DNA of 43,754 nucleotides from a virus (Duplodnaviria > Heunggongvirae > Uroviricota > Caudoviricetes): IMG/VR virus record IMGVR_UViG_2778261353_000008; one strand, 5' to 3'. The notes beneath the pieces are model-generated. The model was not told where the DNA came from. It saw nothing but the letters and a program-made list of their open reading frames with translations, and ran no database searches. The translations under genes were made by a program, and so were the position numbers. This document shows, one piece after another, positions 1,908 to 20,607 of this stretch. Each line of letters begins with the position of its first letter. Positions within the stretch are counted from its first letter, which is position 1.

Positions 1908-2005
1908 CTTCCATTAATCCCTGAATTGTTGGTTAATACGCTTGAGGATGAATGCGAACAATAAAAAAGGAGCCTGTAGCTCCCTGATGATTTTGCTTTT
2001 CATGT

Positions 2006-4468: not shown

Positions 4469-4473
4469 CCGTT

Positions 4474-4890
4474 TTATACCTCTGAATCAATATCAACCTG
4501 GTGGTGAGCAATGGTTTCAACCATGTACCGGATGTGTTCTGCCATGCGCTCCTGAAACTCAACATCGTCATCAAACGCACGGGTAATGGCTTTTTTGCTG
4601 GCCCCGTGGCGTTGTAAATGATCGATGCAGAGTGATTCAAACAGGTGCTGGGGCAGACCTTTTTCCATGTCGTCTGCCAGTTCTGCCTCTTTCTCTTCAC
4701 GGGCGATCTGCTGGTAGTGACGCGTCCAGCTCTGAGCCTCAAGACGATCCTGAATGTAATAAGCGTTCATGGCTGAACTCCTGAAATAGCTGTGAAAATA
4801 TCGCCCGCGAAATGCCGGGCTGATTAGGAAAACAGGAAAGGGGGTTAGTGAATGCTTTTGCTTGATCTCAGTTTCAGTATTAATATCCAT
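4474..4890 (-). CDS. gam: Host nuclease inhibitor Gam
   Basis: 138 aa, matches lambda Gam long form ([55 protein letters not shown]...). Confidence 0.96.
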
Positions 4891-4988
4891 TTTTTATAAG
4901 CGTCGACGGCCTCACGAAACATCTTTTCATCGCCAATAAAAGTGGCGATAGTGAATTTAGTCTGGATAGCCATAAGTGTTTGATCCAT
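4845..4988 (-). CDS. kil: Kil (FtsZ inhibitor), 47 aa
   Basis: ORF 4845..5114 trimmed to internal Met [47 protein letters not shown], matching lambda Kil. Confidence 0.85.
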
Positions 4989-5121
4989 TTTTTGGGACTC
5001 CTGGCTGATTAAGTATGTCGATAAGGCGTTTCCATCCGTCACGTAATTTACGGGTGATTCGTTCAAGTAAAGATTCGGAAGGGCAGCCAGCAACAGGCCA
5101 CCCTGCAATGGCATATTGCAT
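4957..5121 (-). CDS. cIII: CIII (FtsH inhibitor stabilising CII), 54 aa
   Basis: Hand-translated from reverse complement: [54 protein letters not shown]; overlaps kil as in lambda; absent from ORF track (<60 aa). Confidence 0.88.
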   Translation of the reverse strand: MQYAIAGWPVAGCPSESLLERITRKLRDGWKRLIDILNQPGVPKNGSNTYGYPD

Positions 5122-5193
5122 GGTGTGCTCCTTATTTATACATAACGAAAAACGCCTCGAGTGAAGCGTTATTGGTATGCGGTAACGCCGCGC

Positions 5194-5562
5194 TCAGGCG
5201 GCTTTGATAGTCATATCATCTGAATCAAATATTCCTGATGTATCGATATCGGTAATTCTTATTCCTTCGCTACCATCCATTGGAGGCCATCCTTCCTGAC
5301 CATTTCCATCATTCCAGTCGAACTCACACACAACACCATATGCATTTAAGTCGCTTGAAATTGCTATAAGCAGAGCATGTTGCGCCAGCATGATTAATAC
5401 AGCATTTAATACAGAGCCGTGTTTATTGAGTCGGTATTCAGAGTCTGACCAGAAATTATTAATCTGGTGAAGTTTTTCCTCTGTCATTACGTCATGGTCG
5501 ATTTCAATTTCTATTGATGCTTTCCAGTCGTAATCAATGATGTATTTTTTGATGTTTGACAT
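5194..5562 (-). CDS. ea10: Ea10-like early protein (122 aa)
   Basis: Length and position (between cIII and ral) match lambda ea10; flanking DNA matches lambda sequence I recall. Confidence 0.8.
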   Translation of the reverse strand: MSNIKKYIIDYDWKASIEIEIDHDVMTEEKLHQINNFWSDSEYRLNKHGSVLNAVLIMLAQHALLIAISSDLNAYGVVCEFDWNDGNGQEGWPPMDGSEGIRITDIDTSGIFDSDDMTIKAA

Positions 5563-5724
5563 CTGTTCATATCCTCATAGATAAAAAATCGCCCTCACAC
5601 TGGAGGGCAAAGAAGATTTCCAATAATCAGAACAAGTCGGCTCCTGTTTAGTTACGAGCGACATTGCTCCGTGTATTCACTCGTTGGAATGAATACACAG
5701 TGCAGTGTTTATTCTGTTGTTAGT

Positions 5725-5753
5725 GCCAAAAATAAAGGCCGACTATGCGGCCT
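5725..5753 (-). terminator. Putative rho-independent terminator downstream of the membrane-protein cassette
   Basis: Minus-strand RNA would form AGGCCG/CGGCCT stem (6 bp, 6-nt loop) followed by UUAUUUUUGG; sits immediately 3' of ORF 5758..6207. Confidence 0.5.
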
Positions 5754-5757
5754 GAAA

Positions 5758-6207
5758 TTACTTAACCAATGATGCTGCATATTCGATAAGGTAAAGCTTT
5801 GGAGCCAGCAAAATTTTTAACCATGTCATATTGGTTACTGCACTAATAATAAAAATCCCCCACAGAGCCAAAACTCCAACTAATGGCATGATAAGAAGAT
5901 TAATATCACCTTTGCTATCCCAAACCATTGTCGGCCTGTATTTGGGATTTCCCTTCTCCCATGAATATCCTTCATCACTGATTTTACCTGTCTCAACTCT
6001 TCGACACTGCTTCTTCATAAACCAGAAAACCAGTGGGATTGTTAGAATGGCTATTAATGTTTTAATCAGACTGTCAACCATATTCCATAGCAGCAACTGA
6101 TGAACAACATCAGGAATCTGCGCCTGGCTGAATGAAACAGCCGTGTCTATTCCATTGCTGGCTTTTTGCAGTAGTTCTACGAGAATCTTGTTTGCTTGTT
6201 CTTCCAT
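5758..6207 (-). CDS. Hypothetical integral membrane protein (149 aa), cassette inserted between ea10 and ral
   Basis: Two strongly hydrophobic segments (LIKTLIAILTIPLVFWFM and LLIMPLVGVLALWGIFIISAV); AAGGGG RBS upstream of ATG; AT-rich; absent from lambda at this junction. Confidence 0.65.
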   Translation of the reverse strand: MEEQANKILVELLQKASNGIDTAVSFSQAQIPDVVHQLLLWNMVDSLIKTLIAILTIPLVFWFMKKQCRRVETGKISDEGYSWEKGNPKYRPTMVWDSKGDINLLIMPLVGVLALWGIFIISAVTNMTWLKILLAPKLYLIEYAASLVK

Positions 6208-6266
6208 ATATCCCCTTGATTGTAATAAGCATGAAATTATTTACGGCCAAAAAATAAAGGCCACCA

Positions 6267-6467
6267 TCAGGCAGCCTTGTTGTTCTGTTTACCAAGTTCT
6301 CTGGCAATCATTGCCGTCGTTCGTATTGCCCATTTATCGACATATTTCCCATCTTCCATTACAGGAAACATTTCTTCAGACTTAACCATGCATTCCGATT
6401 GCAGCTTGCATCCATTGCATCGCTTGAATTGTCCACACCATTGATTTTTATCAATAGTCGTAGTCAT
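6267..6467 (-). CDS. ral: Restriction alleviation protein Ral
   Basis: 66 aa, matches lambda Ral (MTTTIDKNQWCGQFKRCNGCKLQSECMVK.EEMFPVMEDGKYVDKWAIRTTAMIARELGKQNNKAA). Confidence 0.95.
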   Translation of the reverse strand: MTTTIDKNQWCGQFKRCNGCKLQSECMVKSEEMFPVMEDGKYVDKWAIRTTAMIARELGKQNNKAA

Positions 6468-6595
6468 ACGGATAGTCCTGGTATTGTTCCATCACATCCT
6501 GAGGATGCTCTTCGAACTCTTCAAATTCTTCTTCCATATATCACCTCAAATAAGTGGTTTGCTGCCTAATTTTATTTTCTGGCGACCAACACAAG

Positions 6596-6868
6596 TCACC
6601 TTGCTGTCAGTTGTTTTGATTTCCTGTAGCCTGCCGCGTAAAGAGCTACATTTGGAAGACAAGTTGAGCCTTCATATTTTCTGGTCAACGTTGTCAGTGT
6701 TATTACTTCTGCTCTCATTGCTGGTTTGCGCTTGCATTGCAAGACCACTCGAGAGGGGGTTGGTCTGTGTAGCTTGTCGGAGCTAATCGCCTCCTGACTT
6801 TGCAGGTTTGCGCGACGAGCTCTACGACGAGAAGCTGAGGTGCCTTTAAATTCTGTTTTTCTGGACAT
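6596..6868 (-). CDS. N: Antitermination protein N (P22 gp24-like, non-lambda)
   Basis: ORF 6596..6952 trimmed to Met preceded by GGGAGG RBS; arginine-rich motif SASRRRARRA near N-terminus; C-terminus LPNVALYAAGYRKSKQLTAR resembles P22 gp24 C-terminus; sits between ral and pL. Confidence 0.8.
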   Translation of the reverse strand: MSRKTEFKGTSASRRRARRANLQSQEAISSDKLHRPTPSRVVLQCKRKPAMRAEVITLTTLTRKYEGSTCLPNVALYAAGYRKSKQLTAR

Positions 6869-6966
6869 AGATTCCTCCCGAATAAACTTTGGTGATGCAA
6901 TCTCGAAGCTCCTCCTGAGACGGTTGCTTCGGCATTGCATCCCACAGCTCATGTGGTTGGGTGATC

Positions 6967-7013
6967 TGGCTTTTCAGCCACGTAGTCGAGAGTTCGACGT
7001 TGTTTAAAGAGCC
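6967..7013 (-). promoter_or_regulatory. Putative nutL (boxA-like GGCUCUUUAA followed by boxB-like hairpin UGGCUGAAAAGCCA)
   Basis: Seen on reverse complement between pL candidate and N start; boxB loop GAAAA as in lambda; stem differs from nutR by compensatory changes (GGC/GCC vs CGC/GCG). Confidence 0.5.
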
Positions 7014-7051
7014 TGCCAGTCTGTTCCGTTTGGCTTCCAGCGTCCTGCTGA

Positions 7052-7087
7052 CGGTTAAATAGTACGATATGTACTTTATTGGGTCAA
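7052..7087 (-). promoter_or_regulatory. Putative pL with operator OL1
   Basis: On minus strand: -35 TTGACC, 17-nt spacer, -10 TACTAT; palindrome AGTACATATCGTACT (7061..7075) overlaps spacer and -10 and closely matches a site in the pR candidate. Confidence 0.5.
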
Positions 7088-7272
7088 TACGATTTGTTCT
7101 AAAATGGGGTGATTTTTTATAACACTTTGTATTTAATAGTGTTGTTTTTTAGCGTGGGTGTATCGCCTCGGCGATGTAAGGAGAGATCAGAATTGCGTGG
7201 TTTAGTGAGTTGTATCTATTTATTTTTCAATAAATACATTTGGTTATGTGTCTTTAGATGGGGGCGTGAGGC

Positions 7273-7300
7273 AAAGAAAACCCGGCGCTGAGGCCGGGTG
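7273..7300 (-). terminator. t_imm-like rho-independent terminator ending the cI operon
   Basis: CCCGGC..GCCGGG stem followed on the minus-strand RNA by UUUUCUUUG; surrounding ~120 nt match the lambda sequence I recall between OL and rexB. Confidence 0.6.
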
Positions 7301-7308
7301 GGGTTTTG

Positions 7309-7479
7309 TTATTGGTGCATTTGGCAGACTGTAGTATCAGGTCCATAAGCCAAAGTAAAAACAGGCTTGTTGATCAATCCGTTGTTCTTTAATGATTGAA
7401 TCATTTTACCTTGCTCGCTAACTTTTTGCTTGCTAAGTATTTCTGCCACTTGCTGTGTCAGTGATTTGTCTTTGCTCAT
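7309..7479 (-). CDS. Small ORF (56 aa) translationally coupled to the upstream peptidase-like gene
   Basis: Hand-translated MSKDKSLTQQVAEILSKQKVSEQGKMIQSLKNNGLINKPVFTLAYGPDTTVCQMHQ; its ATG directly follows the TAA of the 300-aa gene (TAAATG); ends 9 nt before the t_imm hairpin; below ORF-track cut-off. Confidence 0.45.
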   Translation of the reverse strand: MSKDKSLTQQVAEILSKQKVSEQGKMIQSLKNNGLINKPVFTLAYGPDTTVCQMHQ

Positions 7480-8382
7480 TTATGACTCACTTTGTTCTGA
7501 GAAGGGGAATGAAGACAGAACAAGAACCTGTCGATTTGTCTTATACATGTATTCATTAATGACGTTGTGCAGATTTTTTAACGCCATGCTAAAATCTTTG
7601 TCGTATGTAAAGTCTTCTACTTTAATTCTTAAGTCATTGATAAGAGTATTTATTCCTATCGTTCTTCCGTGAGAATGCCACTTTCCGTTGTCACTAAGAG
7701 CGGTAGCGATCATTTTAGCTCTCGCTTCTTTTTCCCTCTTGGAAACTAGCTTTCCTCGTTTTGTGTTACCTTGATGAACCGTCCACTCTCTGAATTTATA
7801 CTCTACAAGCCACTTCTTAAGCAAGTCTATTGATAGCTCTCTGGCTTGCTCGTATCTCCTTAAGTGCGCAAGATCTAACTGACTAAGCATCATTAGTTCA
7901 GCTTGGGTAATGGTTCCTTCTCTGGATTTAGTAATCATTTCTTCAACTTTATCAAGGTATCCCAAAGCAGGAACCCATTTACCGTCAGAGGATTGCACTT
8001 GAGGGTCAATGGGGCCTAATGAAGAAGCATAGTTCATGTAAATTTTATCTCCAGACATACACCATATTGTGCCTGCCGACATGGCCATATCTGGAATGAT
8101 AAAATATACCTCTTGATAGAAATGCCTTGTAATTTCTACCATTTTTTCCACAGACTCAACAGAGCCACCATTTGTATTGAGTATAATAACTAGAAATCTA
8201 TTGGTACGACTGTTAGCCATCTCCCCAATAGCCTCAAGTTTTGGTTGGTAAACTTCTTTTGACCATGGAAAGATACCACCGTAGTACGCTATGACGTCGC
8301 AGCTTGGGAAAAAGTTATTTTTAAATTGCTCTAACTGCCAAGAAATGTATGTTTCTAGTGTTGAATCAAGATTTTGGCTCAT
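7480..8382 (-). CDS. Clp-fold serine-peptidase-like protein (S49/SDH-family-like) in the rexAB slot
   Basis: 300 aa; motifs VIILNTNGGSVESVEKMVEI, IIPDMAMSAGT (putative Ser nucleophile), SSLGPIDPQ; immediately downstream of cI on the same strand; AT-rich; family assignment is from motif memory only. Confidence 0.6.
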   Translation of the reverse strand: MSQNLDSTLETYISWQLEQFKNNFFPSCDVIAYYGGIFPWSKEVYQPKLEAIGEMANSRTNRFLVIILNTNGGSVESVEKMVEITRHFYQEVYFIIPDMAMSAGTIWCMSGDKIYMNYASSLGPIDPQVQSSDGKWVPALGYLDKVEEMITKSREGTITQAELMMLSQLDLAHLRRYEQARELSIDLLKKWLVEYKFREWTVHQGNTKRGKLVSKREKEARAKMIATALSDNGKWHSHGRTIGINTLINDLRIKVEDFTYDKDFSMALKNLHNVINEYMYKTNRQVLVLSSFPFSEQSES

Positions 8383-8454
8383 GTGATACCTTGCTATATC
8401 AACAATTTACAATAACATGTTGCACTATCGGTTTTTTATTAATCACAATTGGAA

Positions 8455-9114
8455 TTACCCAAACGTCTCTTCAGGCCACTGACTAGCGATAACTTTCCCC
8501 ACAACGGAACAACTCTCATTGCATGGGATCATTGGGTATTGTGGGTTTAGTGGCTGTAGAAACACCTGACCGCTATCCCTGATCAGTTTCTTGAAGGTAA
8601 ATTCATCACCACCAAGTCTGGCTATGCAGAAATCGCCGGGCTCAACAGCTTGCTCAGGGTCAACCAGAATTAACATCCCGTCAGGAAAACTGGGTTTGGA
8701 ACCTGTTGGTGCGGTCATTGAGTTACCTTCAACCTCAAGCCAGAATGCAGAGTCACTGGCTTTTTTGGTTGTGCTTACCAATCTCTCCGCATCGCCTTTG
8801 GTAAAGGTTCTGAGTTCTGGAGAGAACATCCCAGCCTGAACATGAGAAAATACAGGGTACTCATATTGTTTTTTAACTGGGGCCGATGAGTATTCGCCAA
8901 CAGGTGAAAATGTCCCGTCGTGGTTGAATGATATGTTATCAATACCAAGGTATTTAAACACCAAACCAATATCACTAAGAGATGGATGACGAGATCCGCG
9001 CAACCAGTGTCCAATCCCACCCTGCGTCATACCTAGCTCTTCGGCTAACTTCTCTTGAGTTATGCCGAGCTCTTTCATTCTGGATCTAGCCAGTTCATAC
9101 CATTTCATTTTCAT
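8455..9114 (-). CDS. cI: CI-type prophage repressor (HTH-XRE N-terminus, LexA/S24-like C-terminal domain)
   Basis: ORF 8455..9156 trimmed to Met with AAGGA RBS ([37 protein letters not shown]...); C-terminal [13 protein letters not shown]...[23 protein letters not shown] resembles P22 C2 / lambda CI autocleavage domain; divergent from cro across an operator region. Confidence 0.88.
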
Positions 9115-9169
9115 GTCCTTATTATTACGCTCTGTACTGGAACCATCCATGCACAATGTGTATTTTTGC

Positions 9170-9198
9170 TTGTATTTGGAAAGTACATATTGTATTTT
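9170..9198 (+). promoter_or_regulatory. Putative pR with operator OR1
   Basis: -35 TTGTAT, 17-nt spacer, -10 TATTTT, GGAGG RBS and cro ATG ~27 nt downstream; operator AGTACATATTGTATT (9182..9196) nearly identical to the OL site. Confidence 0.5.
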
Positions 9199-9224
9199 TT
9201 ATTCGAGGTTACTATGGAGGGCAT

Positions 9225-9440
9225 ATGAGCAACCTACGAAAATATCGAGAGTCACTGAATATCTCTCAAACAACACTTGCTAAGGCAGTTGGATGCACAC
9301 AGGGAGCTATCGGACATTGGGAATCTGGTCGTCGCTTCCCAGACCTTAAAACATGCCGTGCTCTTGTTGCGTGCCTAAATAAGTTAGGCGCAAAAGTAAG
9401 TCTTGATGACGTGTTCCCGCCGGAACACAAAGCCGCTTAA
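9225..9440 (+). CDS. cro: Cro-like repressor (HTH-XRE), 71 aa
   Basis: ORF 9156..9440 trimmed to Met MSNLRKYRESLNISQTTLAKAVGCTQGAIGHWESGRRFPDLKTCRALVACLN... preceded by GGAGG; divergent from cI. Confidence 0.8.
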   Translation: MSNLRKYRESLNISQTTLAKAVGCTQGAIGHWESGRRFPDLKTCRALVACLNKLGAKVSLDDVFPPEHKAA

Positions 9441-9451
9441 TAAGCGGAGCC

Positions 9452-9497
9452 GCTCTTTGTAACAACGGACATTCGTCCTACGTCGCTGAAAAGCGAG
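9452..9497 (+). promoter_or_regulatory. Putative nutR (boxA CGCTCTTTG, boxB-like hairpin TCGCTGAAAAGCGA)
   Basis: Located between cro and cII; boxA matches the CGCTCTT(T)A consensus; boxB loop GAAAA as in lambda. Confidence 0.5.
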
Positions 9498-9581
9498 TCC
9501 CAAGATATCTGACCAACTAAGGCCATATGCGTTTCCACGCATACCTTTCAACTAACTATTCACTATTGGAAATCTTAAGAA

Positions 9582-9878
9582 ATGGAAAGAACAAGTTACA
9601 GCAAACTATCACAACGTGACGTTGATCGCGCAGAAACAGATTTACTTATCAATCTGTCAACTATTACCCAGCGCGGTCTGGCAAAGATGATTGGCTGTCA
9701 TGAATCGAAGATAAGCAGAACGGACTGGCGGTTTATTGCTTCGGTCTTGTGTGCTTTCGGAATGGCATCAGACATCAGTCCAATTAGCAGGGCTTTTAAG
9801 TATGCGCTTGATGGAATCACAAAAAAAAAATCCCCGGTGGCCGCCGGGGACTCTAAGCAAATTGATATGCAATTCTGA
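9582..9878 (+). CDS. cII: CII-like transcriptional activator
   Basis: 98 aa; HTH region (GLAKMIGCHESKISRTDWRF) and C-terminus KKKSPVAAGDSKQIDMQF parallel lambda CII (KKRPAATERSEQIQMEF). Confidence 0.75.
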   Translation: MERTSYSKLSQRDVDRAETDLLINLSTITQRGLAKMIGCHESKISRTDWRFIASVLCAFGMASDISPISRAFKYALDGITKKKSPVAAGDSKQIDMQF

Positions 9879-9910
9879 GGGAATTACTGGATCAATCCAC
9901 AGGAGTCATT

Positions 9911-10810
9911 ATGACAAATACAGCAAAAATACTCAACTTCGGCAGAGGTAACTTTTCCGGACAGGAGCGTAATGTGGCAGATCTCGATGATGGTTACGCC
10001 AGACTATCAAATATGCTGCTTGAGGCTTATTCGGGCGCAGATCTGACCAAGCGACAGTTTAAAGTGCTGCTTGCCATTCTGCGTAAAACCTATGGGTGGA
10101 ATAAACCAATGGACAGAATCACCGATTCTCAACTTAGCGAGATTACAAAGTTACCTGTCAAACGGTGCAATGAAGCCAAGTTAGAACTCGTCAGAATGAA
10201 TATTATCAAGCAGCAAGGCGGCATGTTTGGACCAAATAAAAACATCTCAGAATGGTGTATCCCTCAAAACGAGGGAAAATCCCCTAAAACGAGGGATAAA
10301 ACATCCCTCAAATTGGGGGATTGCTATCCCTCAAAACAGGGGGACACAAAAGACACTATTACAAAAGAAAAAAGAAAAGATTATTCGTCCGAGAATTCTG
10401 GCAAATCCTCTGACCAGCCAGAAAACGATCTTTCTGTGGTTAAACCGGATGCTGCAATTCAGAGCGGCAGCAAGTGGGGAACAGCAGAAGACCTGACCGC
10501 CGCAGAGTGGATGTTTGACATGGTGAAGACCATCGCGCCATCAGCCAGAAAACCGAATTTTGCTGGGTGGGCTAACGATATCCGCCTGATGCGTGAACGT
10601 GACGGACGTAACCACCGCGATATGTGTGTGCTTTTCCGCTGGGCCTGCCAGGACAACTTCTGGTCCGGTAACGTGCTGAGCCCGGCCAAACTCCGCGATA
10701 AGTGGACCCAACTCGAAATCAACCGTAACAAGCAACAGGCAGTCGTGACAGCCAGCAAACCAAAACTCGACCTGACAAACACAGACTGGATTTACGGGGT
10801 GGATCTATGA
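9911..10810 (+). CDS. O: Replication initiator O
   Basis: 299 aa, near-identical to lambda O (MTNTAKILNFGRGNF.GQERNVADLDDGYARLSNMLLEAYSGADLTKRQFKVLLAILRKTYGWNKPMDRITDSQL...). Confidence 0.97.
   Translation: MTNTAKILNFGRGNFSGQERNVADLDDGYARLSNMLLEAYSGADLTKRQFKVLLAILRKTYGWNKPMDRITDSQLSEITKLPVKRCNEAKLELVRMNIIKQQGGMFGPNKNISEWCIPQNEGKSPKTRDKTSLKLGDCYPSKQGDTKDTITKEKRKDYSSENSGKSSDQPENDLSVVKPDAAIQSGSKWGTAEDLTAAEWMFDMVKTIAPSARKPNFAGWANDIRLMRERDGRNHRDMCVLFRWACQDNFWSGNVLSPAKLRDKWTQLEINRNKQQAVVTASKPKLDLTNTDWIYGVDL
10258..10385 (+). repeat. ori-lambda: four iterons (TCCCTCAAAACGAGGGA-type) plus adjacent A/T-rich region, inside O
   Basis: Direct reading: ccctcaaaacgaggga / tcccctaaaacgaggga / tccctcaaattggggga / tccctcaaaacaggggga followed by aaaagaaaaaagaaaaga. 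Confidence 0.85.
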
Positions 10811-11508
10811 AAAACATCGCCGCACAGATGGTTAACTTTGACCGTGAGCAGATGCGTCGGATCGCCAACAACATGCCGGAACAGTACGACGAAAAGCCAC
10901 AGGTACAGCAGGTAGCGCAGATCATCAACGGTGTGTTCAGCCAGTTACTGGCAACTTTCCCGGCGAGTCTGGCTAACCGTGACCAGAACGAACTGAACGA
11001 AATCCGCCGCCAGTGGGTTCTGGCTTTCCGGGAAAACGGGATCACCACAATGGAACAGGTTAACGCAGGAATGCGCGTAGCCCGTCGGCAGAATCGACCA
11101 TTTCTGCCATCACCCGGGCAGTTTGTTGCATGGTGCCGGGAAGAAGCATCCGTTATCGCCGGACTGCCAAACGTCAGCGAGCTGGTTGATATGGTTTACG
11201 AGTATTGCCGGAAGCGAGGCCTGTATCCGGATGCGGAGTCTTATCCGTGGAAATCAAACGCGCACTACTGGCTGGTTACCAACCTGTATCAGAACATGCG
11301 GGCCAATGCGCTTACTGATGCGGAATTACGGCGCAAGGCTGCCGATGAACTGACCTGTATGACAGCGCGAATTAACCGTGGTGAGACGATACCTGAACCA
11401 GTAAAACAACTTCCTGTTATGGGCGGTAGACCTCTAAATCGTGCACAGGCTCTGGCGAAGATCGCAGAAATTAAAGCTAAGTTCGGACTGAAAGGAGCAA
11501 GTGTATGA
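10807..11508 (+). CDS. P: Replication protein P (DnaB helicase loader)
   Basis: 233 aa matching lambda P (MKNIAAQMVNFDREQMRRIANNMPEQYDEKPQVQQVAQIINGVFSQLLATFPASLANRDQNE...). Confidence 0.96.
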   Translation: MKNIAAQMVNFDREQMRRIANNMPEQYDEKPQVQQVAQIINGVFSQLLATFPASLANRDQNELNEIRRQWVLAFRENGITTMEQVNAGMRVARRQNRPFLPSPGQFVAWCREEASVIAGLPNVSELVDMVYEYCRKRGLYPDAESYPWKSNAHYWLVTNLYQNMRANALTDAELRRKAADELTCMTARINRGETIPEPVKQLPVMGGRPLNRAQALAKIAEIKAKFGLKGASV

Positions 11509-11795
11509 CGGGCAAAGAGGCAATTATTCATTACCTGGGGACGCATAATAGCTTCTGTGCGCCGGACGTTGCCGCGCTAACAGGCGCAACAGTAACCAGC
11601 ATAAATCAGGCCGCGGCTAAAATGGCACGGGCAGGTCTTCTGGTTATCGAAGGTAAGGTCTGGCGAACGGTGTATTACCGGTTTGCTACCAGGGAAGAAC
11701 GGGAAGGAAAGATGAGCACGAACCTGATTTTTAAGGAGTGTCGCCAGAGTGCCGCGATGAAACGGGTATTGGCGGTATATGGAGTTAAAAGATGA
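11505..11795 (+). CDS. ren: Ren (Rex exclusion-resistance protein)
   Basis: 96 aa matching lambda Ren (MTGKEAIIHYLGTHNSFCAPDVAALTGATVTSINQAAAKMARAGLLVIEGKVWRTVYYRFATREEREGKMST...). Confidence 0.93.
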   Translation: MTGKEAIIHYLGTHNSFCAPDVAALTGATVTSINQAAAKMARAGLLVIEGKVWRTVYYRFATREEREGKMSTNLIFKECRQSAAMKRVLAVYGVKR

Positions 11796-11820
11796 CCATC
11801 TACATTACTGAGCTAATAAC

Positions 11821-11853
11821 AGGCCTGCTGGTAATCGCAGGCCTTTTTATTTG
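11821..11853 (+). terminator. tR2-like rho-independent terminator between ren and ninB
   Basis: AGGCCTGC / GCAGGCCT stem, 8-nt loop, then TTTTTATTTG. Confidence 0.7.
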
Positions 11854-11868
11854 GGGGAGAGGGAAGTC

Positions 11869-12309
11869 ATGAAAAAACTAACCTTTGAAATTCGATCTCC
11901 AGCACATCAGCAAAACGCTATTCACGCAGTACAGCAAATCCTTCCAGACCCAACCAAACCAATCGTAGTAACCATTCAGGAACGCAACCGCAGCTTAGAC
12001 CAAAACAGGAAGCTATGGGCCTGCTTAGGTGACGTCTCTCGTCAGGTTGAATGGCATGGTCGCTGGCTGGATGCAGAAAGCTGGAAGTGTGTGTTTACCG
12101 CAGCATTAAAGCAGCAGGATGTTGTTCCTAACCTTGCCGGGAATGGCTTTGTGGTAATAGGCCAGTCAACCAGCAGGATGCGTGTAGGCGAATTTGCGGA
12201 GCTATTAGAGCTTATACAGGCATTCGGTACAGAGCGTGGCGTTAAGTGGTCAGACGAAGCGAGACTGGCTCTGGAGTGGAAAGCGAGATGGGGAGATCGG
12301 GCTGCATGA
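11869..12309 (+). CDS. ninB: NinB (Orf recombination mediator)
   Basis: ORF 11851..12309 trimmed to MKKLTFEIRSPAHQQNAIHAVQQILPDPTKPIVVTIQERNRSLDQNRKLWACLGD..., matching lambda NinB. Confidence 0.93.
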   Translation: MKKLTFEIRSPAHQQNAIHAVQQILPDPTKPIVVTIQERNRSLDQNRKLWACLGDVSRQVEWHGRWLDAESWKCVFTAALKQQDVVPNLAGNGFVVIGQSTSRMRVGEFAELLELIQAFGTERGVKWSDEARLALEWKARWGDRAA

Positions 12310-12833
12310 CTATCAAATCAAATACGCCAGCACACGACAAGGACTGCTGGCAAACGCCGCTTTGGCTTTTTGATGCACTGGATATTGAGTTTGGATTCTG
12401 GCTGGATTCGGCAGCGAGCGACAAAAATGCTCTGTGTGCTCACTGGCTAACTGAGGCCGACGACGCGCTCAATTCTGAGTGGGTAAGCCACGGTGCAATC
12501 TGGAATAACCCACCGTACAGCAATATCAGGCCGTGGGTGGAAAAAGCTGCTGAGCAGTGCATACAACAGCGACAGACGGTAGTTATGCTTGTGCCAGAGG
12601 ATATGTCAGTCGGATGGTTCAGCAAGGCTCTGGAGAGTGTCGACGAAGTTCGCATTATCACTGATGGACGGATTAATTTTATCGAACCATCGACAGGGCT
12701 GGAGAAGAAGGGAAACAGCAAAGGCTCCATGCTGCTGATTTGGCGACCGTTCATCAGTCCTCGACGGATGTTTACTACCGTATCCAAAGCGGCATTGATG
12801 GCGATCGGGCAGGGCGTCAGGAGGGCGGCATGA
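12306..12833 (+). CDS. Phage DNA N6-adenine methyltransferase (Dam family), copy 2
   Basis: ORF 12246..12833 trimmed to [25 protein letters not shown]...; NPPYS motif and [11 protein letters not shown]; start overlaps ninB stop (ATGA); occupies the lambda ninC/ninD slot. Confidence 0.8.
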
Positions 12834-13006
12834 GGCGACAGCGACGAAGTTTCACCGACATCATCTGCGAAAACTGCAAATACCTTCCAACGAAACGCTC
12901 CAGAAATAAACGCAAGCCAATCCCAAAAGAATCTGACGTAAAAACCTTCAATTACACAGCTCACCTGTGGGATATCCGGTGGCTAAGATATCGTGCGAGG
13001 AAATGA
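12830..13006 (+). CDS. ninE: NinE
   Basis: Internal Met of ORF 12740..13006: [58 protein letters not shown], matching lambda NinE; ATGA overlap with upstream gene. Confidence 0.85.
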
Positions 13007-13350
13007 CAATGGATTATTCACAGTTAAGTGATTTTGAAATTAACAGAATGGTAGGAGACATAATTTTTAAAGGCCTTTGGGCAAGTAAACCGGAAACATC
13101 AGGGAATAACACCAACAAATGGTATTACGGAAATGCTGATACAACTTTTGAGCCATTAAATCATTTGCCTGACTACTGCAATGATCCGAGCGCTTCATGG
13201 CCGATTATTGAGAAATACAGGATTTCTATCTTAGACCAGTTAACTGAATGGTGTGTGGATGCAAAAGGCGTAAGCCCAATATTTGATACCAGACCTCTCC
13301 GCGCCGCCATGATTGTCTTTCTCCTGATGCAGGAGGCCAATAATGCTTAG
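13003..13350 (+). CDS. Hypothetical nin-region protein (115 aa)
   Basis: Internal Met of ORF 12967..13350 ([26 protein letters not shown]...); ATGA overlap with ninE; family not recognised with confidence. Confidence 0.55.
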
Positions 13351-13537
13351 CCCATCTCAATCCCTTCAATACCTGAAAGGAAGCATAGAGCGGGCTTCAA
13401 TGTGCACAGAGTGGATTCTATCTAGGTTTAGCGCATACAGAAGATTGCCGGTAAAGGGCATGCCAAGCAAGTCGATGCTGCATATGCAAAAGAATGCGCG
13501 CTGGAAGGTATGGCGAGAACACAGGTTATCTGGCTGA
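13343..13537 (+). CDS. NinF-like small protein (N-terminus matches lambda NinF, remainder divergent)
   Basis: First 10 residues [10 protein letters not shown] equal lambda NinF; downstream sequence lacks the Cys pairs I recall in lambda NinF. Confidence 0.45.
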
Positions 13538-13556
13538 AAGAGGGGGTTATTAAGGC

Positions 13557-13919
13557 GTGAATACCTACAGCATCACATTACCCTGGCCTCCGAGCAATAA
13601 TCGCTATTACCGCCATAATCGCGGGCGCACGCACGTCAGCGCAGAGGGGCAGGCATACCGCGATAACGTCGCCCGAATCATTAAAAACGCAATGCTGGAT
13701 ATCGGCCTGACTATGCCTGTGAAAATCCGCATTGAGTGCCACATGCCGGATCGCCGTCGCCGTGACCTGGATAATCTGCAAAAAGCCGCTTTTGACGCAC
13801 TCACTAAAGCAGGTTTCTGGCTGGATGATGCTCAGGTCGTTGATTACCGCGTTGTGAAGATGCCTGTTACCAAAGGTGGGAGGCTGGAACTGACCATCAC
13901 CGAAATGGGGAATGAATGA
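13557..13919 (+). CDS. rusA: RusA-family Holliday junction resolvase
   Basis: 120 aa, GTG start; RusA-like sequence ([31 protein letters not shown]...[18 protein letters not shown]...[12 protein letters not shown]); occupies the slot of lambda ninG. Confidence 0.85.
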
Positions 13920-14056
13920 TGTTTGAGTTTAATATGGCAGAACTTCTTCGCCACCGCTGGGGGCGTCTGCGCTTATATCGTTTCCCCGGTTCTGTTTTGA
14001 CCGATTACCGAATACTGAAGAATTACGCCAAAACACTGACAGGAGCAGGAGTATGA
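13916..14056 (+). CDS. YlcG-like 46-aa protein
   Basis: Hand-translated [46 protein letters not shown]; start overlaps rusA stop; same size and rusA-to-Q position as DLP12 ylcG. Confidence 0.45.
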
Positions 14057-14141
14057 AGTCAGAGATAACAATCAACTAATACTGTTTTGTTGATTTTTGC
14101 TTGTAATTGGCGTTCTGGTCTGAGTTTTGTGGAGTAAGTTG

Positions 14142-14519
14142 ATGCGTGATATTCAGATGGTTCTTGAGCGTTGGGGAGCGTGGGCGGCTAATAATCATGA
14201 AGATGTGACCTGGTCGTCCATTGCCGCCGGTTTTAAGGGATTAATTCCTTCAAAAGTAAAATCTCGCCCACAATGTTGTGACGATGACGCGATGATCATT
14301 TGCGGGTGCATGGCCCGTCTGAAAAAGAACAACAGCGATTTGCATGATTTATTGGTGGACTATTATGTCGGCGGCATGACTTTTATGGCGCTTGCACGTA
14401 AGCATGGGCGATCTGATTGTTGGGTTGGCAGGATGCTTCAGAAAGCTGAGGGCGTAGTGGAGGGTATGCTGATGGTGTTGGATCTCCGATTGGAGATGGA
14501 TGCTGATTGTTCGAAATAA
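14142..14519 (+). CDS. Q: Late-gene antiterminator Q (non-lambda Q family, DLP12/phage-21-like size)
   Basis: ORF 14127..14519 trimmed to ATG after GGAG RBS ([31 protein letters not shown]...); 125 aa; positioned just upstream of a terminator and the lysis region. Confidence 0.75.
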
Positions 14520-14619
14520 TTAAAGGAAAAGTTGCTGTCTGATTGTCATTAGTCTAACATTTTAAATGTTGGAATCGCAACGTAGTTATTATCATATAAC
14601 AGCTTGTTTCCTGATTTAG

Positions 14620-14648
14620 CCAGCCTCCCCAAAGGCTGGTCTTTTTCT
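14620..14648 (+). terminator. tR'-like rho-independent terminator downstream of Q
   Basis: CCAGCCT / AGGCTGG stem with CCCCAA loop followed by TCTTTTTCT. Confidence 0.6.
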
Positions 14649-14674
14649 AATAAGTATTATTTCGGGTAGGGATT

Positions 14675-15199
14675 TTATTGTTTAACCCATAATAATTCAT
14701 TGACATTGAATCCCAACTTTTGAGCGGTTCGCACATAGTCTGCTTTTACTTTATCTGGAATAGTTGGGGTCCTTGCCAGAATCCATAGGTATTCTCTGTT
14801 CGGACCACTGACAAGAGCATACTTATACTCATCATCCAGTTTGATTACATTATAGCCACCATAGAAGGGGCCAAAAAACGAAACCTTCAATGCTGCAGTT
14901 TTAGTATCTCCAGTAAAGTATGCTTTACCTTCGCTCTCGCTCCATTTATTTTTCGTTGGATCGTATCCACGGTTAAGTACACGAATCCCTCCGTCGTTCC
15001 GTTTTCCATAAGTAGCGCTGACCTGTTCCAGACCACGTTCGAACCGGTTCTCGAGGCGAGCTATTTCATACCATTTTCCGAGGTAGCGGTTGGCGTCAAA
15101 ATTTGTAATCGGCTGCACACCTTTAGGTGGTGTCGGGGCCTTACATGCTATAAGAGTGAAAGAGAGTGCAATGCCAGTCAACACAGGCCATAACTTCAT
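14675..15199 (-). CDS. blc: Blc-like bacterial lipocalin (outer-membrane lipoprotein)
   Basis: 174 aa; lipoprotein signal with lipobox LIAC; strong similarity to E. coli Blc as I recall it (NFDANRYLGKWYEIARLENRFERGLEQVSATY...YFTG...AALKVSFFGPFYGGYNVI...YLWILARTP). Confidence 0.85.
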   Translation of the reverse strand: MKLWPVLTGIALSFTLIACKAPTPPKGVQPITNFDANRYLGKWYEIARLENRFERGLEQVSATYGKRNDGGIRVLNRGYDPTKNKWSESEGKAYFTGDTKTAALKVSFFGPFYGGYNVIKLDDEYKYALVSGPNREYLWILARTPTIPDKVKADYVRTAQKLGFNVNELLWVKQ

Positions 15200-15391
15200 A
15201 ATAAATCCTGTACTTTTGATAGTTGAGAGTAAGTATGAAAGATAGATGATTACGACCGATCACTTAAAGAACTTTCATACTATATTAGGAATAGTCCATA
15301 ACAGAAAAATTGTCAGTGATGACGCCAGAAAGGCAATTTATTCCGTGCACTACACAGTTTATGTGTTAATGAATTAGTCAAGGGGGAGAAT

Positions 15392-16351
15392 ATGATAAAA
15401 AAACCTGTGATTGGAATCAGCGGTTGTTTGGCCGGTTCTGCTGTTCGTTTTGATGGTGGTCACAAAAGAGCTGACTTTTTAATGGACAAATTAGTGGAAT
15501 GGGTAACATTCAGACCAGTATGTCCGGAAATGGCTATAGGGCTGCCAGTTCCGCGTCCTGCTCTACGTCTTGTGCGCTCGATGCAAGGAAATATACGGAT
15601 GTGTTTCAGCCACGACCAGAATGAGGATGTGACAGAGAGAATGACAGAGTTTAGTCGTTCTTATATGGACAAATTAAAGGATGTATCGGGGTTTGTGGTT
15701 TGTGCTAAATCTCCCAGCTGTGGCATGGAGCGCGTGCGTGTCTATGATGAAAATGGTAATCGAGGTCGTAAAGATGGAGTGGGACTATTTACGAGCACTT
15801 TGATGGAAAAGTTTTCCTGGCTACCGGTTGAAGAGGATGGGCGATTACATGATCCAGTGCTTCGTGAGAATTTTGTTGAAAGAGTTTTTGCTTTGCATGA
15901 GCTCAATCACCTTTACAAGGAGAAATTATCAAGAAGAGAGTTATTAGCTTTTCATAGTCGTTATAAGCTTCAGTTGTTGGCGCATAGTCAGGCAGGCTAT
16001 AAAGATATGGGACCATTTGTGGCTGCAATACACGAGTGGGCGGACCTTGAATCATACTTTGAGGTGTATCGTGATAAGCTGATGGCGATTCTCAGAAAAC
16101 CTGCATCACGTAAAAATCACACGAATGTGCTGATGCATATACAGGGGTATTTTAGTAACTACTTAAGTACACGCCAGCGTAAAGAGTTGAGCGAGGTTAT
16201 ACTTAACTATCGTTCTGGCACATTACCTCTTCTTGCGCCGTTGACTCTGCTGAAGCATTATCTGGGTGAGTATCCTAATGATTACTTGCTTACACAGAAT
16301 TACTTCGATCCCTATCCGGACGAACTGGCTCTAAGACTGATGGTAAATTAA
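15392..16351 (+). CDS. DUF523/DUF1722 fusion protein (TudS-like N-terminal domain, YbgA-like C-terminal domain)
   Basis: 319 aa; N-terminal Cys in IGISGCLAG, PVCPE, AKSPSCGME consistent with Fe-S-binding DUF523/TudS-type proteins; C-terminal half YbgA-like; assignment from motif memory. Confidence 0.6.
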   Translation: MIKKPVIGISGCLAGSAVRFDGGHKRADFLMDKLVEWVTFRPVCPEMAIGLPVPRPALRLVRSMQGNIRMCFSHDQNEDVTERMTEFSRSYMDKLKDVSGFVVCAKSPSCGMERVRVYDENGNRGRKDGVGLFTSTLMEKFSWLPVEEDGRLHDPVLRENFVERVFALHELNHLYKEKLSRRELLAFHSRYKLQLLAHSQAGYKDMGPFVAAIHEWADLESYFEVYRDKLMAILRKPASRKNHTNVLMHIQGYFSNYLSTRQRKELSEVILNYRSGTLPLLAPLTLLKHYLGEYPNDYLLTQNYFDPYPDELALRLMVN

Positions 16352-16702
16352 TTGTATGCGATATCATCCAAAAGGATGAGTTCCTGCATGCAGGATATTT
16401 ACAATCGTAAAAACTACACTATGATACCCAGAGTGTCAGTTTGTATAAAAACTCTGTTTACGCTGAAGAAACAATTGAGATGCAACTTAAAGTTGGTAAA
16501 CATGCCAGTCAAAATATATAATATTATGATTCCACGCAGCTATATATAATATAACAGATTGGTTTAATAATTTGTCTTTGTGAGTTAAATACATAATTTT
16601 ATACTTGTGATGCAATGAAATTTTCCTTATTGTTGAACTGGCGAATATTGATTTTCCACCTATACTTACCTGGTGTAACCCCAATGATATCAGGTGGATA
16701 AT

Positions 16703-17434
16703 ATGCCATACATATGTTCTATCATTTTGGTGTTGAACTCGTTTGATGTCCGAATTGGTAAAGAAGATATTTTGTTTAAAAAAGGAAGTGCTGTTCTCAT
16801 TGATTACAATTTAAAAGATTTTTTTTCATCAAATATAGATCATGTAATGATCGTAGATGTTGAAGAGAAAACAGTTAATGATTTCTTTAAAAGCAACACA
16901 CTCTCACCTTTTTCTGTAAGAAGGTTTTATCCGGCATACTTGATGGTGGAATGTGAAGATTTTTCATTGTTAAAGAACTTGATTGCATGCTTGAATTGTG
17001 ATGGCAGAACTGTGGATTTTGTTAGAAATCAAATATCACTTGCATGTCTTGCTATCTTATCTTCAGAGAAAATAGTGCAAAGTTTTTTATTTGGATGTCT
17101 TAATAGTTTAGGAAGTAAAGTTAAGGCTATTATTCACACGGATATATCTGCAGCATGGAGACTTTGTGATATATCTTCAAGACTGTATCTGAGTGAAAGT
17201 CTGTTAAAAAGAAAATTAAAGCACGAAGGCTTATCATTTAGTAAGTTAATTCTTGAAGAGCGAATGGTGATGGCGGAAAGGTTATTAAGCTACAATTTAT
17301 ATTCTGTTGGAAAAGTTGCTGAGATATGCGGTTATGAAAACACGTCATATTTTGTAAGTGTTTTCAGAAGGTATTTTGGTGTTCCTCCCCATCAATATTC
17401 ATCAAGATTTTTTTTAGAAAAAGACATGATGTAA
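16703..17434 (+). CDS. AraC-family transcriptional regulator (AppY-like)
   Basis: ORF 16694..17434 trimmed to first ATG; C-terminal AraC HTH (LSESLLKRKLKHEGLSFSKLILEERMVMAERLL...VAEICGYENTSYFVSVFRRYFGVPPHQY); N-terminus MPYICSIILVLNSFD resembles DLP12 AppY; AT-rich gene. Confidence 0.8.
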   Translation: MPYICSIILVLNSFDVRIGKEDILFKKGSAVLIDYNLKDFFSSNIDHVMIVDVEEKTVNDFFKSNTLSPFSVRRFYPAYLMVECEDFSLLKNLIACLNCDGRTVDFVRNQISLACLAILSSEKIVQSFLFGCLNSLGSKVKAIIHTDISAAWRLCDISSRLYLSESLLKRKLKHEGLSFSKLILEERMVMAERLLSYNLYSVGKVAEICGYENTSYFVSVFRRYFGVPPHQYSSRFFLEKDMM

Positions 17435-17621
17435 CGTGATGCGTTTTAATGATTTTGTAATTTTCGTATTTGATAATTGTATGATGCTTTCAGCTACGCC
17501 AGAATAATCGCGGCGTTTTTCTTTTTGAATAGATGTTCAAGCCTTACGCTAATGTAACTTCTATACCTTTCCTCTTCGTTCCGAACCGTGTACACCATCC
17601 GTTATTTGCGGAGGTGAGGCT

Positions 17622-17837
17622 ATGAAATCCATGGATAAGTTAACAACGGGTGTCGCCTATGGCACCTCAGCAGGTAGTGCCGGTTACTGGTTTTTACAGC
17701 TGCTCGATAAAGTCACGCCCTCACAGTGGGCAGCAATAGGTGTGCTGGGTAGCCTGGTATTTGGCCTGCTGACGTACCTGACAAACCTTTATTTCAAGAT
17801 TAAAGAAGATAAGCGCAAGGCTGCGAGAGGTGAATAA
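17622..17837 (+). CDS. S: Holin, class II pinholin (phage 21 S21-like), dual-start motif
   Basis: 71 aa [45 protein letters not shown]... closely matches S21. Confidence 0.9.
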
Positions 17838-18334
17838 TGCCTCCATCATTACGAAAAGCCGTTGCTGCTGCTATTGGTGGCGGAGCAATTGCTATAGCAT
17901 CAGTGTTAATCACTGGCCCAAGTGGTAACGATGGTCTGGAAGGTGTCAGCTACATACCATACAAAGATATCGTTGGCGTATGGACTGTATGTCACGGGCA
18001 TACAGGAAAAGACATCATTCCCGGTAAAACGTATACCGAAGCAGAATGCAAAGCCCTCCTGAATAAAGACCTTGCCACGGTAGCCAGACAAATTAACCCG
18101 TACATCAAAGTCGATATACCGGAAACAACGCGCGGCGCTCTTTACTCGTTCGTCTATAACGTGGGCGCAGGCAATTTCAGAACATCTACTCTTCTTCGCA
18201 AAATAAACCAGGGCGATATCAAGGGCGCATGTGACCAGCTACGTCGCTGGGCATACGCTGGCGGTAAGCAATGGAAAGGCCTGATGACTCGTCGTGAGAT
18301 TGAGCGTGAGGTCTGTTTGTGGGGGCAACAATGA
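17837..18334 (+). CDS. R: SAR endolysin (lysozyme, R21-like)
   Basis: 165 aa; N-terminal signal-anchor-release segment ([20 protein letters not shown]) followed by lysozyme domain; ATG overlaps holin stop. Confidence 0.9.
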
Positions 18335-18823: not shown

Positions 18824-19117
18824 TTATTGTGAGCAATACACACGCGCTTCCAGCGGAGTATAAATGCCTAAAGTAATAAAACCGAGAAATCCATTTACGA
18901 ATGTTTGCTGGGTTTCTGTTTTAACAACATTTTCTGCGCCGCCACAAATTTTGGCTGCATCAACAGTTTTCTCCTGTCCAATTCCCGAAACGAAGAAATG
19001 ATGGGTGATGGTTTCCTTTGGTGTTACTGCTGTCGGTTTGTTTCCAACAGTAAACGTCTGTTGAGCACATCCTGTAATAAGCATTGCCAGAGCGGCAGAA
19101 AACAACATTTTTTTCAT
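18824..19117 (-). CDS. bor: Bor lipoprotein (Iss-like serum-resistance factor)
   Basis: ORF 18824..19165 trimmed to MKKMLFSAALAMLITGCAQQTFTVGNKPTAVTPKETITHHFFVSGIGQEKTVDAAKICGGAENVVKTETQQTFVNG..., 97 aa, matching lambda Bor. Confidence 0.9.
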   Translation of the reverse strand: MKKMLFSAALAMLITGCAQQTFTVGNKPTAVTPKETITHHFFVSGIGQEKTVDAAKICGGAENVVKTETQQTFVNGFLGFITLGIYTPLEARVYCSQ

Positions 19118-19478
19118 CTTATTATCCTGCATTGTTAAAAACGGCAGAATCCTATGTGACAACAATTAAACGATAGTTAAATGGATTGATGAAAATTAAA
19201 ACTATATAGGTGGATGCTCAGCCTATTGGAGGAGGGGGGGGCACTCAGAATCCTGTGGAATGAAATAAACCGCTCTATCTGTCCATTACCCTTTTAGCTG
19301 CGCTGTATCGTCGCCGTATTCCCGCATTAACCATGACCGTAGCCCGACGGGGAATTCCTTCTGCGTGAGTGTGCGGGAATAATCAAAAACGATGCACACC
19401 GGGTTTTACTGTGCTGACAGACGCAGGGTTACCCTCATAGTCGCTTTTCCGGTGCGATGGTGGAAGAAACCGGGATGT

Positions 19479-20061: not shown

Positions 20062-20581
20062 ATGGAAGTCAACAAAAAGCAGCTGGCTGACATTTTCGGT
20101 GCGAGTATCCGTACCATTCAGAACTGGCAGGAACAGGGAATGCCCGTTCTGCGAGGCGGTGGCAAGGGTAATGAGGTGCTTTATGACTCTGCCGCCGTCA
20201 TAAAATGGTATGCCGAAAGGGATGCTGAAATTGAGAACGAAAAGCTGCGCCGGGAGGTTGAAGAACTGCGGCAGGCCAGCGAGGCAGATCTCCAGCCAGG
20301 AACTATTGAGTACGAACGCCATCGACTTACGCGTGCGCAGGCCGACGCACAGGAACTGAAGAATGCCAGAGACTCCGCTGAAGTGGTGGAAACCGCATTC
20401 TGTACTTTCGTGTTGTCGCGGATCGCAGGTGAAATTGCCAGTATTCTCGACGGGCTCCCCCTGTCGGTGCAGCGGCGTTTTCCGGAACTGGAAAACCGAC
20501 ATGTTGATTTCCTGAAACGGGATATCATCAAAGCCATGAACAAAGCAGCCGCGCTGGATGAACTGATACCGGGGTTGCTGA

Positions 20582-20607
<26 letters not shown>
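20062..20607 (+). CDS. nu1: Terminase small subunit Nu1
   Basis: 181 aa identical in length and sequence to lambda Nu1 (MEVNKKQLADIFGASIRTIQNWQEQGMPVLRGGGKGNEVLYDSAAVIKWYAERDAE...). Confidence 0.97.

Follow-up and report, generated by a model that had tools for sequence, protein, structure and literature searches.

The 43,754-nucleotide stretch analysed here, IMG/VR record IMGVR_UViG_2778261353_000008 (the window), is a lambda-like prophage with an integrase gene at its left end and Nu1/terminase and lambda-type head and tail genes at its right. Between the end of its antiterminator gene Q at position 14519 and the start of its holin gene S at 17622 lies a gap of 3,102 bp that holds three intact genes, encoding a Blc-like outer-membrane lipocalin, a member of the RudS family of tRNA desulfidases and an AraC-type regulator. 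We regard this island as most probably a moron cassette that fills the Q–S slot of the prophage, which is integrated at argU/DLP12, and the products of the cassette are expected to change the physiology of the host. No product of the three falls into a family of phage structural, replication or lysis proteins. The cassette is genuine and probably useful to the host, and it is ordinary in kind.

Borders, spread and selection of the cassette

A three-gene cargo island of about 3.1 kb had been proposed in an earlier, sequence-only reading of the window, and all of its elements were recovered in place. The left flank is formed by the Q gene (14142–14519, plus strand, in an open reading frame that starts at 14127), which encodes an antiterminator of the QuuD/phage-82 type (PF06530, E = 2.5e-51) and for which identical public records give the annotation "antiterminator Q family protein". 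The right flank is formed by the gene for holin S (17622–17837, plus strand), which is of the EssD/S21 type (PF04971, E = 2e-35). The Q gene is 95% identical at the nucleotide level to quuD of the Escherichia coli K-12 prophage DLP12 up to position 14501. There, 18 nt before the Q stop codon, the homology to DLP12 ends, and it resumes at 17611, 11 nt before the start of S. The swapped cassette is then 14502–17610, and in K-12 DLP12 the same slot is taken by the leftward porin gene nmpC. This precise replacement relative to the nmpC cassette, carriage by 12 isolated lambdoid phages and a deviating base composition (38.2% G+C for the island versus 50.7% for the window) agree with the cargo interpretation given in the sequence-only reading. 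The AT-richness it had ascribed to the regulator is likewise apparent, with 32% G+C for the gene and its upstream spacer. No tRNA genes are present in the island, unlike in Stx-type Q–S regions.

Among the phages, IdasGreatGrand has a cassette of 99.2% identity, and the identity is about 89% for 1H12 and ten related phages from infant-gut E. coli. A survey of 5,426 complete E. coli genomes gave matches to rudS in 1,136, to the blc-like gene in 1,135 and to the regulator gene in 1,033; a query made up of the island with some 100 bp of flanking sequence on either side was matched over at least 80% of its length in 986. Overall, the cassette is present in about 1,000–1,100 of these genomes, or roughly one in five. 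In IMG/VR the full order Q–blc–rudS–araC–S is found in 71 of the 80 loci identified through RudS. Many of the carriers are degraded prophages, among them remnants at the lambda attachment site. Carriage of the cassette on plasmids was considered and rejected, since the four matches were to large fragments or to chromosomes with a wrong label. The cassette (Q, blc, rudS, araC and holin) also appears, with 94–100% protein identity, on two short contigs of a metagenome-assembled genome labelled Candidatus Nanosynbacter (Saccharibacteria); this is almost certainly binning contamination. Our literature search found no paper that describes blc, rudS and the regulator as one unit.

The ratios of nonsynonymous to synonymous substitution rates (dN/dS) between the alleles of the window and those of 1H12 are 0.06 for blc, 0.11 for rudS and 0.26 for araC. 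The low values for all three genes indicate that the reading frames are not due to chance and that they are under purifying selection.

Over positions 1–17700 the window has the same sequence as a prophage that the bovine E. coli strain UTAK-3 carries at argU/DLP12, and across 1–37834 the identity is 99.35%. Two further reading frames, cII-like (9582–9878) and Nu1/nohD-like (20062–20607), are intact in the window and flagged as frameshifted in the UTAK-3 prophage; the prophage of the window therefore looks more complete than its nearest match among complete genomes. On the 3' side of Rz/Rz1 a gene for a Bor-type lipoprotein (18824–19165, minus strand), named "increased serum survival lipoprotein Iss" in the UTAK-3 record, forms a second leftward outer-membrane moron of the late region. 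The lambda cIII thermoregulator RNA (5076–5134, minus strand; Rfam RF01804, 88.5 bits) confirms a lambda-type early-left region. It is the only Rfam match at gathering threshold in the whole window and lies far from the island, and a permissive Rfam scan of 14300–17800 returned only three sub-threshold chance matches.

The three cargo proteins

Pfam and NCBIfam profiles place the three products in the lipocalin, DUF523 plus DUF1722 and AraC families, in line with the assignments that had been made from the sequence. The blc-like gene (14675–15199, minus strand) encodes a lipoprotein of 174 residues with a Lipocalin_2 domain (PF08212, E = 7e-44). It scores 316 bits against the Blc subfamily model NF007786 (cut-off 267), covers model positions 1–174 of 176 and matches Blc chains in the PDB at E = 1e-68. 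Read by eye, its N-terminus MKLWPVLTGIALSFTLIAC, which is followed by KAP, contains the lipobox LIAC with Cys19 and has a Lys rather than an Asp at position +2. Domain, subfamily score and lipobox thus all point to the leftward Blc-like outer-membrane lipocalin that had been recognized before. The identity to Blc of K-12 is only 60%, compared with 77–82% to the Blc proteins encoded next to rudS in other Enterobacterales, and the phage protein is therefore this rudS-linked paralog and not an ortholog of blc of the sugE–blc–ampC locus. In island-identical records the coding sequence has the accession WP_000780581. This protein has been quantified by tandem-mass-tag proteomics in strain CCUG 70745, where it rises two- to threefold within 15 min of exposure to meropenem (PMC13459554), and Mathieu et al. 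listed blc among the morons, with more than half of their infant-gut lambda phages carrying it (PMC6969025).

The 319-residue protein encoded by the next gene (15392–16351, plus strand) is RudS, a family of [4Fe–4S] tRNA 4-thiouridine (s4U) desulfidases, and is predicted to remove sulfur from s4U in tRNA. Residues 7–149 form the TudS/DUF523 domain (PF04463, E = 4.5e-40) and residues 192–309 the DUF1722 domain (PF08349, E = 5.8e-41). The protein is 93% identical to gp66 of phage 1H12 (RudS_vir, H3V29_gp66) and contains the cluster cysteines Cys12, Cys44 and Cys110 listed for RudS_vir in Table 1 of PMC11417400. Glu46, Arg55, Ser107 and Ser109 are found at the offsets of the catalytic residues Glu51, Arg60, Ser111 and Ser113 of RudS_KT. 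The earlier description as a TudS-like DUF523 protein with Fe–S cysteine motifs and a YbgA-like domain can accordingly be refined to RudS. When synthesized and overexpressed, RudS_vir lowered the s4U content of tRNA in E. coli, and overexpression of RudS_KT reduced the UVA-induced growth delay (PMC11417400, Nucleic Acids Res 2024). The same paper states that E. coli is without RudS. With a prophage copy of rudS in 21% of complete E. coli genomes, this statement is true of K-12 and not of the species. A cassette remnant is also seen in the widely used laboratory strain E. coli BL21 (NZ_CP053601.1, 1558651–1558797), where a 147-nt fragment of the 5' end of rudS is left that is annotated as a 2-thiouracil desulfurase family protein.

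The third gene (16703–17434, plus strand) encodes an intact AraC/XylS regulator of 243 residues that belongs to the GadW/YdeO/AppY/Psr/PatE clade (PF12833, E = 1e-14; PF00165, E = 2e-11), with PF12833 spanning the C-terminal double helix-turn-helix (residues 161–237). The reading frame opens at a GTG at 16694; the likely start is the ATG at 16703, which follows an AGGTGG Shine–Dalgarno sequence and is used in the public annotation. A disrupted frame would have spoken against a functional gene, and the frame is uninterrupted in the window. End to end, the regulator is 54% identical to ECs_0287 of strain Sakai, 39% to PsrA (ECs1087), 34% to GadW and 32% to both AppY and YdeO. Its best match in NCBIfam, YdeO, reaches 127 bits, below the cut-off of 348. 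Given this score and the 32% identity to AppY, the regulator is an ortholog of neither YdeO nor AppY. The term "AppY-like" that had been attached to it is thus right for the clade but not for the nearest relative, which would be PatE. ECs_0287 is the only AraC-type gene in the Sakai prophage Sp1 (CP-933H, OI-8), the PatE locus, and we infer that it is PatE from this island assignment (OI-8 = Sp1) and from published induction in stationary phase, rather than from a sequence labelled PatE. According to a review (PMC10877973), PatE and PsrB activate gadE and hdeAB and bind the hdeA promoter. The DNA-binding domain is 72% identical to that of ECs_0287 and 56% to that of PsrA, and the N-terminal domain 40% and 27%, respectively; with N-terminal identities this low the sensed signal may differ.

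A run of eight T residues (T8; 16819–16826, plus strand) at about codons 39–42 of the regulator gene is a slippage hotspot, with T7, T6 or T9 variants in 11 of 79 scored loci. Among the loci compared, the tract is T8 in 52, T7 in eight, T6 in two and T9 in one, and in a divergent allele class of the regulator the run is interrupted by a C. Copies with T7 and T6 in complete RefSeq genomes are annotated as frameshifted pseudogenes. T7 alleles occur on at least two backgrounds of single-nucleotide polymorphisms, and frameshifted copies are paired with different holin alleles. In an evenly spaced sample of the match ranking, the regulator spans 730 or 731 nt in eight of the 16 rows of the class at or above 99%. 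The 195-residue reading frame on the 3' side of the frameshift forms a protein database cluster of 623 members, against 1,131 for the full-length form. Further copies in IMG/VR loci are deleted or disrupted by insertion sequences. The variation of the tract may reflect either ON/OFF switching or recurrent loss.

Transcription, origin and possible roles

In the interpretation that we prefer, the three products would each act on the host. The Blc-like protein would be an outer-membrane lipoprotein that binds lipids. Its gene points leftward, against late transcription, as do bor and nmpC, which makes expression in the lysogen from a promoter of its own the most likely case. RudS would use a [4Fe–4S] cluster on Cys12, Cys44 and Cys110 to remove sulfur from 4-thiouridine, so that the cell would have less of this near-UV-sensitive mark on its tRNA. 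The AraC-type protein would be an activator similar to PatE and Psr, probably countering H-NS and turning on acid-resistance genes, gadE and hdeAB for example. Established are the gene identities, their conservation, linkage and mobility, the activity of a RudS ortholog with 93% identity and the presence of Blc protein in one strain; we infer the promoters, the timing of expression, the targets of the regulator and any effect on fitness.

Several points weigh against this interpretation. Direct evidence for expression is available for the Blc protein in one strain, and expression of rudS and of the regulator in lysogens or induced cultures is presumed. RudS_vir has a lower activity on tRNA than other RudS enzymes despite its good solubility, and its lag on 4-thiouracil is the shortest of all RudS variants in the comparison (PMC11417400), so that tRNA may not be its preferred substrate in vivo. 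The regulator is frameshifted, disrupted or deleted in a sizeable share of copies and is thus clearly dispensable, perhaps costly, and with only 54% identity to the protein that we take to be PatE, to assign it the same targets is to extrapolate. The region contains 13 promoter-like hexamers, compared with 11.5 ± 3.1 in shuffled sequence; there is no excess, and no promoter claim can rest on a consensus scan. Finally, the linkage of blc and rudS in other genera, described below, hints at a functional coupling that a view of independent morons does not explain.

Possible signals for late transcription lie at and beyond the end of Q. A candidate late promoter pR' (14491–14520, plus strand; TGGAGA, 18 nt, AATAAT) scores 9/12 in the promoter scan, and its −10 element overlaps the Q stop codon. 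A TAATTAA core at this site is the sole invariant block in the otherwise diverged regions downstream of Q in the window, DLP12, 1H12 and Sakai Sp4. Another candidate picked by eye, TTGCTG-17-TAACAT at 14532–14560, matches the consensus at just seven of 12 positions and was dropped in favour of the conserved site detected by the scan. About 100 nt past Q follows a candidate tR' (14619–14648, plus strand), a GC-rich hairpin with its stem at 14619–14640 and a U-run on the plus strand only (folding free energy −14.2 kcal/mol, z = −3.3). It is the only terminator match in 14000–18000, and its stem sequence is identical in phage 1H12. As read from the sequence, this layout would fit a short pR' transcript that is ended at tR'. 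Both rudS and the regulator gene point rightward and lie downstream of this pair, so a Q-antiterminated transcript that reaches the lysis genes must transcribe both and run antisense through blc. Such read-through from pR' is suggested by the gene order, the tR'-like terminator and the formation of plaques by phages with this layout.

The chief alternative, raised by this arrangement, is that RudS mostly helps the lytic growth of the phage instead of serving lysogenic conversion, which we consider conceivable, if somewhat doubtful. UV and sunlight are classic inducers, and a rudS gene in the late operon would be made after induction. Near-UV light cross-links s4U8, slowing translation and triggering the stringent response, and erasure of s4U would keep late translation going. 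Lytic development of lambdoid phages is inhibited by ppGpp. The rightward orientation of rudS just downstream of the pR'/tR'-like pair, the diminished UVA-induced growth delay upon RudS overexpression and the retention of the cassette in plaque-forming phages all agree with such a role. On the other hand, the 192-bp upstream region that rudS shares with blc could hold a promoter of its own, late expression may come too late to matter, and many degraded prophages that are incapable of lytic growth have kept the cassette, which favours a benefit to the host. The two roles of RudS, as a lytic helper and as a trait of the lysogen, are not exclusive.

Information on the origin of the cargo comes from chromosomal relatives, for which one genome per species was scanned. 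RudS homologues with 66–76% identity are found in many Enterobacterales, including Citrobacter, Enterobacter, Leclercia, Lelliottia, Kluyvera, Klebsiella oxytoca and Pectobacterium. Of the 62 chromosomal loci, 42 have a blc paralog on the opposite strand, upstream of rudS, and most of these rudS-linked paralogs are 77–82% identical to the phage protein, well above the identity to the Blc of E. coli itself. The spacing between the two genes is 192 bp in the phage, 187–228 bp in Citrobacter sedlakii and one other Citrobacter, and 1.1–1.6 kb in 35 loci. In an Enterobacter cloacae locus the genes for a MerR/MlrA-like regulator and a transthyretin-like protein are located between blc and rudS. Linkage of the pair in other genera makes it most likely, judging from these sequence comparisons, that the phage acquired blc and rudS together, as a single unit from a chromosome. 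With its 32% G+C and steeper divergence, the regulator gene looks like a separate acquisition.

The region between blc and rudS (15200–15391, 34% G+C) is a divergent control region that contains the dyad AAATTG-N21-CAATTT at 15307–15339. The dyad occurs once in the window, with 0.04 occurrences expected for a pattern that was picked after being seen. It is kept in all close phage-type loci, imperfect in 1H12 and absent from the chromosomal loci. As an operator for MlrA/BluR it was rejected, since only the outer arms are shared, the GTACA core is lacking and the spacing is off by one; we keep it as a lead only.

The chromosomal arrangement also allows the three phage genes to be seen as one stress module, in which the AraC-type protein replaces the chromosomal MerR/MlrA-type regulator and controls the divergent blc and rudS promoters. 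In Salmonella, MlrB and MlrA repress orf319 (rudS) of mlrB–orf319, and this repression would be in keeping with such a module, as would the divergent neighbourhood of blc and rudS in the 42 chromosomal loci, the intervening MlrA-like gene of the E. cloacae example and the almost one-to-one co-occurrence of the three phage genes in E. coli. We nevertheless find it unlikely. The G+C content of the regulator gene is 32%, compared with 43–44% for blc and rudS, and its two allele classes are about 87% identical at the nucleotide level, compared with 92–95% for rudS and blc, which suggests a separate origin. Inactivation often affects the regulator and leaves blc and rudS intact, and the nearest characterized relatives of the regulator act on chromosomal acid-resistance promoters. 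Lastly, a search for operator motifs common to the two intergenic regions gave only short two-copy repeats at chance level. A bolder combination appears similarly improbable, namely that RudS made from the late operon erases s4U upon induction by sunlight or UV and, together with a PatE-like regulator switched by the T8 tract, constitutes a heritable and reversible stress module. If this were true, the loss of s4U would cancel the near-UV growth delay and the stringent response that throttles late protein synthesis, slippage at T8 would switch the regulator ON and OFF across lysogens, and the module would be present in about a fifth of sequenced E. coli.

That the island hitch-hikes as selectively neutral DNA and has no present function is very unlikely. 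The many copies in decaying prophages and the frequency with which the regulator is inactivated could be read in that way, yet blc and rudS are under strong purifying selection, full-length copies are present in more than 1,000 genomes, a RudS ortholog is active and the Blc protein has been detected. Exclusion lipoproteins are frequent in lambdoid phages, and genes of this kind occur in and near the Q–S region, but a function in anti-phage defence or superinfection exclusion, with the lipoprotein masking a receptor or tRNA de-modification blocking an incoming phage, found no specific support and is the least probable explanation, as none of the three proteins matches any of 5,027 PADLOC defence models at E <= 0.01, the matching PHROG families are without assigned function and the close chromosomal homologues of blc and rudS are found in non-phage housekeeping contexts.

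A few other signals lie within the interval. The spacer upstream of the regulator gene (16352–16702, 351 bp, 32% G+C) is AT-rich and contains promoter-like hexamers at 16398–16425 and 16493–16522, each matching at ten of 12 positions. Directly 3' of the rudS stop codon is a stable hairpin (16352–16395, plus strand) with a folding free energy of −20.5 kcal/mol and z = −5.0 (computed for 16345–16405). It is without a U-run and could be a partial terminator or an mRNA-stabilizing structure. Terminator and folding scans found no canonical terminator after blc, rudS or araC. A 20-nt direct repeat with 85% identity has its first copy, TATCATATAACAGCTTGTTT (14590–14609), between Q and the tR'-like hairpin and its second copy, TATAATATAACAGATTGGTT (16545–16564), in the AT-rich spacer before the regulator gene. 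The core of the first copy, ATATAACAG, is also present downstream of quuD in K-12 DLP12. An exact 13-nt repeat, GGAAAAGTTGCTG, is found at 14525–14537, just past the Q stop codon, and at 17309–17321 within the regulator reading frame; by our own estimate, chance alone would give about 0.07 such matches in 3 kb.

Significance and comparison with known systems

The cassette adds one more copy to a lambdoid cargo that is widespread and partly characterized, and it leaves the concepts of lambdoid cargo unchanged. The blc gene had already been listed as a lambda moron, and RudS_vir has been characterized. The new details are the chromosomal origin of the blc–rudS pair, the prevalence of prophage RudS in E. 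coli and the slippage-prone, uncharacterized PatE-like regulator. Through a prophage, s4U levels in tRNA and the responses to near-UV light may differ among E. coli strains. The family of the regulator is known for rewiring both acid resistance and type III secretion in enterohaemorrhagic E. coli (EHEC). The regulator itself is widespread in commensal, animal and clinical strains, and its frequent switch-off through a homopolymer provides a natural ON/OFF series for target finding. The blc–rudS pair illustrates concretely how a phage captures a chromosomal unit of two genes, and its linkage suggests that an envelope lipocalin and the de-thiolation of tRNA are functionally connected in a way so far unexplored.

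The closest counterpart of the cassette as a whole is the nmpC cassette of DLP12, alongside the cargo found between Q and S in other lambdoid prophages. With DLP12, the slot, the Q type, the holin type, the presence of a leftward outer-membrane gene and the exact borders at Q and S are all shared, and the difference is in the cargo, which is one gene in DLP12 and three in the window. For the lipocalin, the reference is the chromosomal Blc of E. coli (b4149; PDB entries 1QWD, 2ACO and 3MBT), with which the phage protein shares the fold family, the length and the lipoprotein signal. The 60% identity between the two is nevertheless modest, and the phage protein is nearer to the paralog beside rudS in Enterobacter, Leclercia, Lelliottia and C. 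sedlakii.

RudS_vir of 1H12 has the 319-residue length, the TudS plus DUF1722 architecture and the Cys12, Cys44 and Cys110 positions in common with RudS of the window, and its gene likewise lies between blc and an AraC gene in a Q–S cassette that is 89% identical in DNA. RudS of the window is a different allele with 21 substitutions, and the activity measured is that of RudS_vir. The paper that describes RudS_vir did not address its phage context, and the chromosomal neighbourhood of blc and rudS also goes unmentioned there (PMC11417400).

Among chromosomal systems, mlrB–orf319 (STM1390–STM1389) of Salmonella pathogenicity island 2 and the blc/mlrA-like/transthyretin-like/rudS clusters of Enterobacter contain a homologous rudS, with 70–76% identity in the chromosomal loci, and in most chromosomal loci blc is divergently upstream of rudS, as in the phage. 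The phage copy differs from the Salmonella and Enterobacter clusters in that it is without the genes for the MerR-type regulator and the transthyretin-like protein and has an AraC-type gene downstream instead. This regulator is comparable to PatE (Z0321, CP-933H/Sp1) and PsrA/PsrB (Z1789/ECs1087 and Z2104) of EHEC O157:H7, which are prophage-encoded activators of acid resistance. The clade, the length, the AT-richness and the location in a prophage are shared, and PsrA of Sakai Sp4 is likewise found downstream of Q and ahead of displaced lysis genes, while the gene of the window is set apart from PatE and Psr by its T8 slippage tract.

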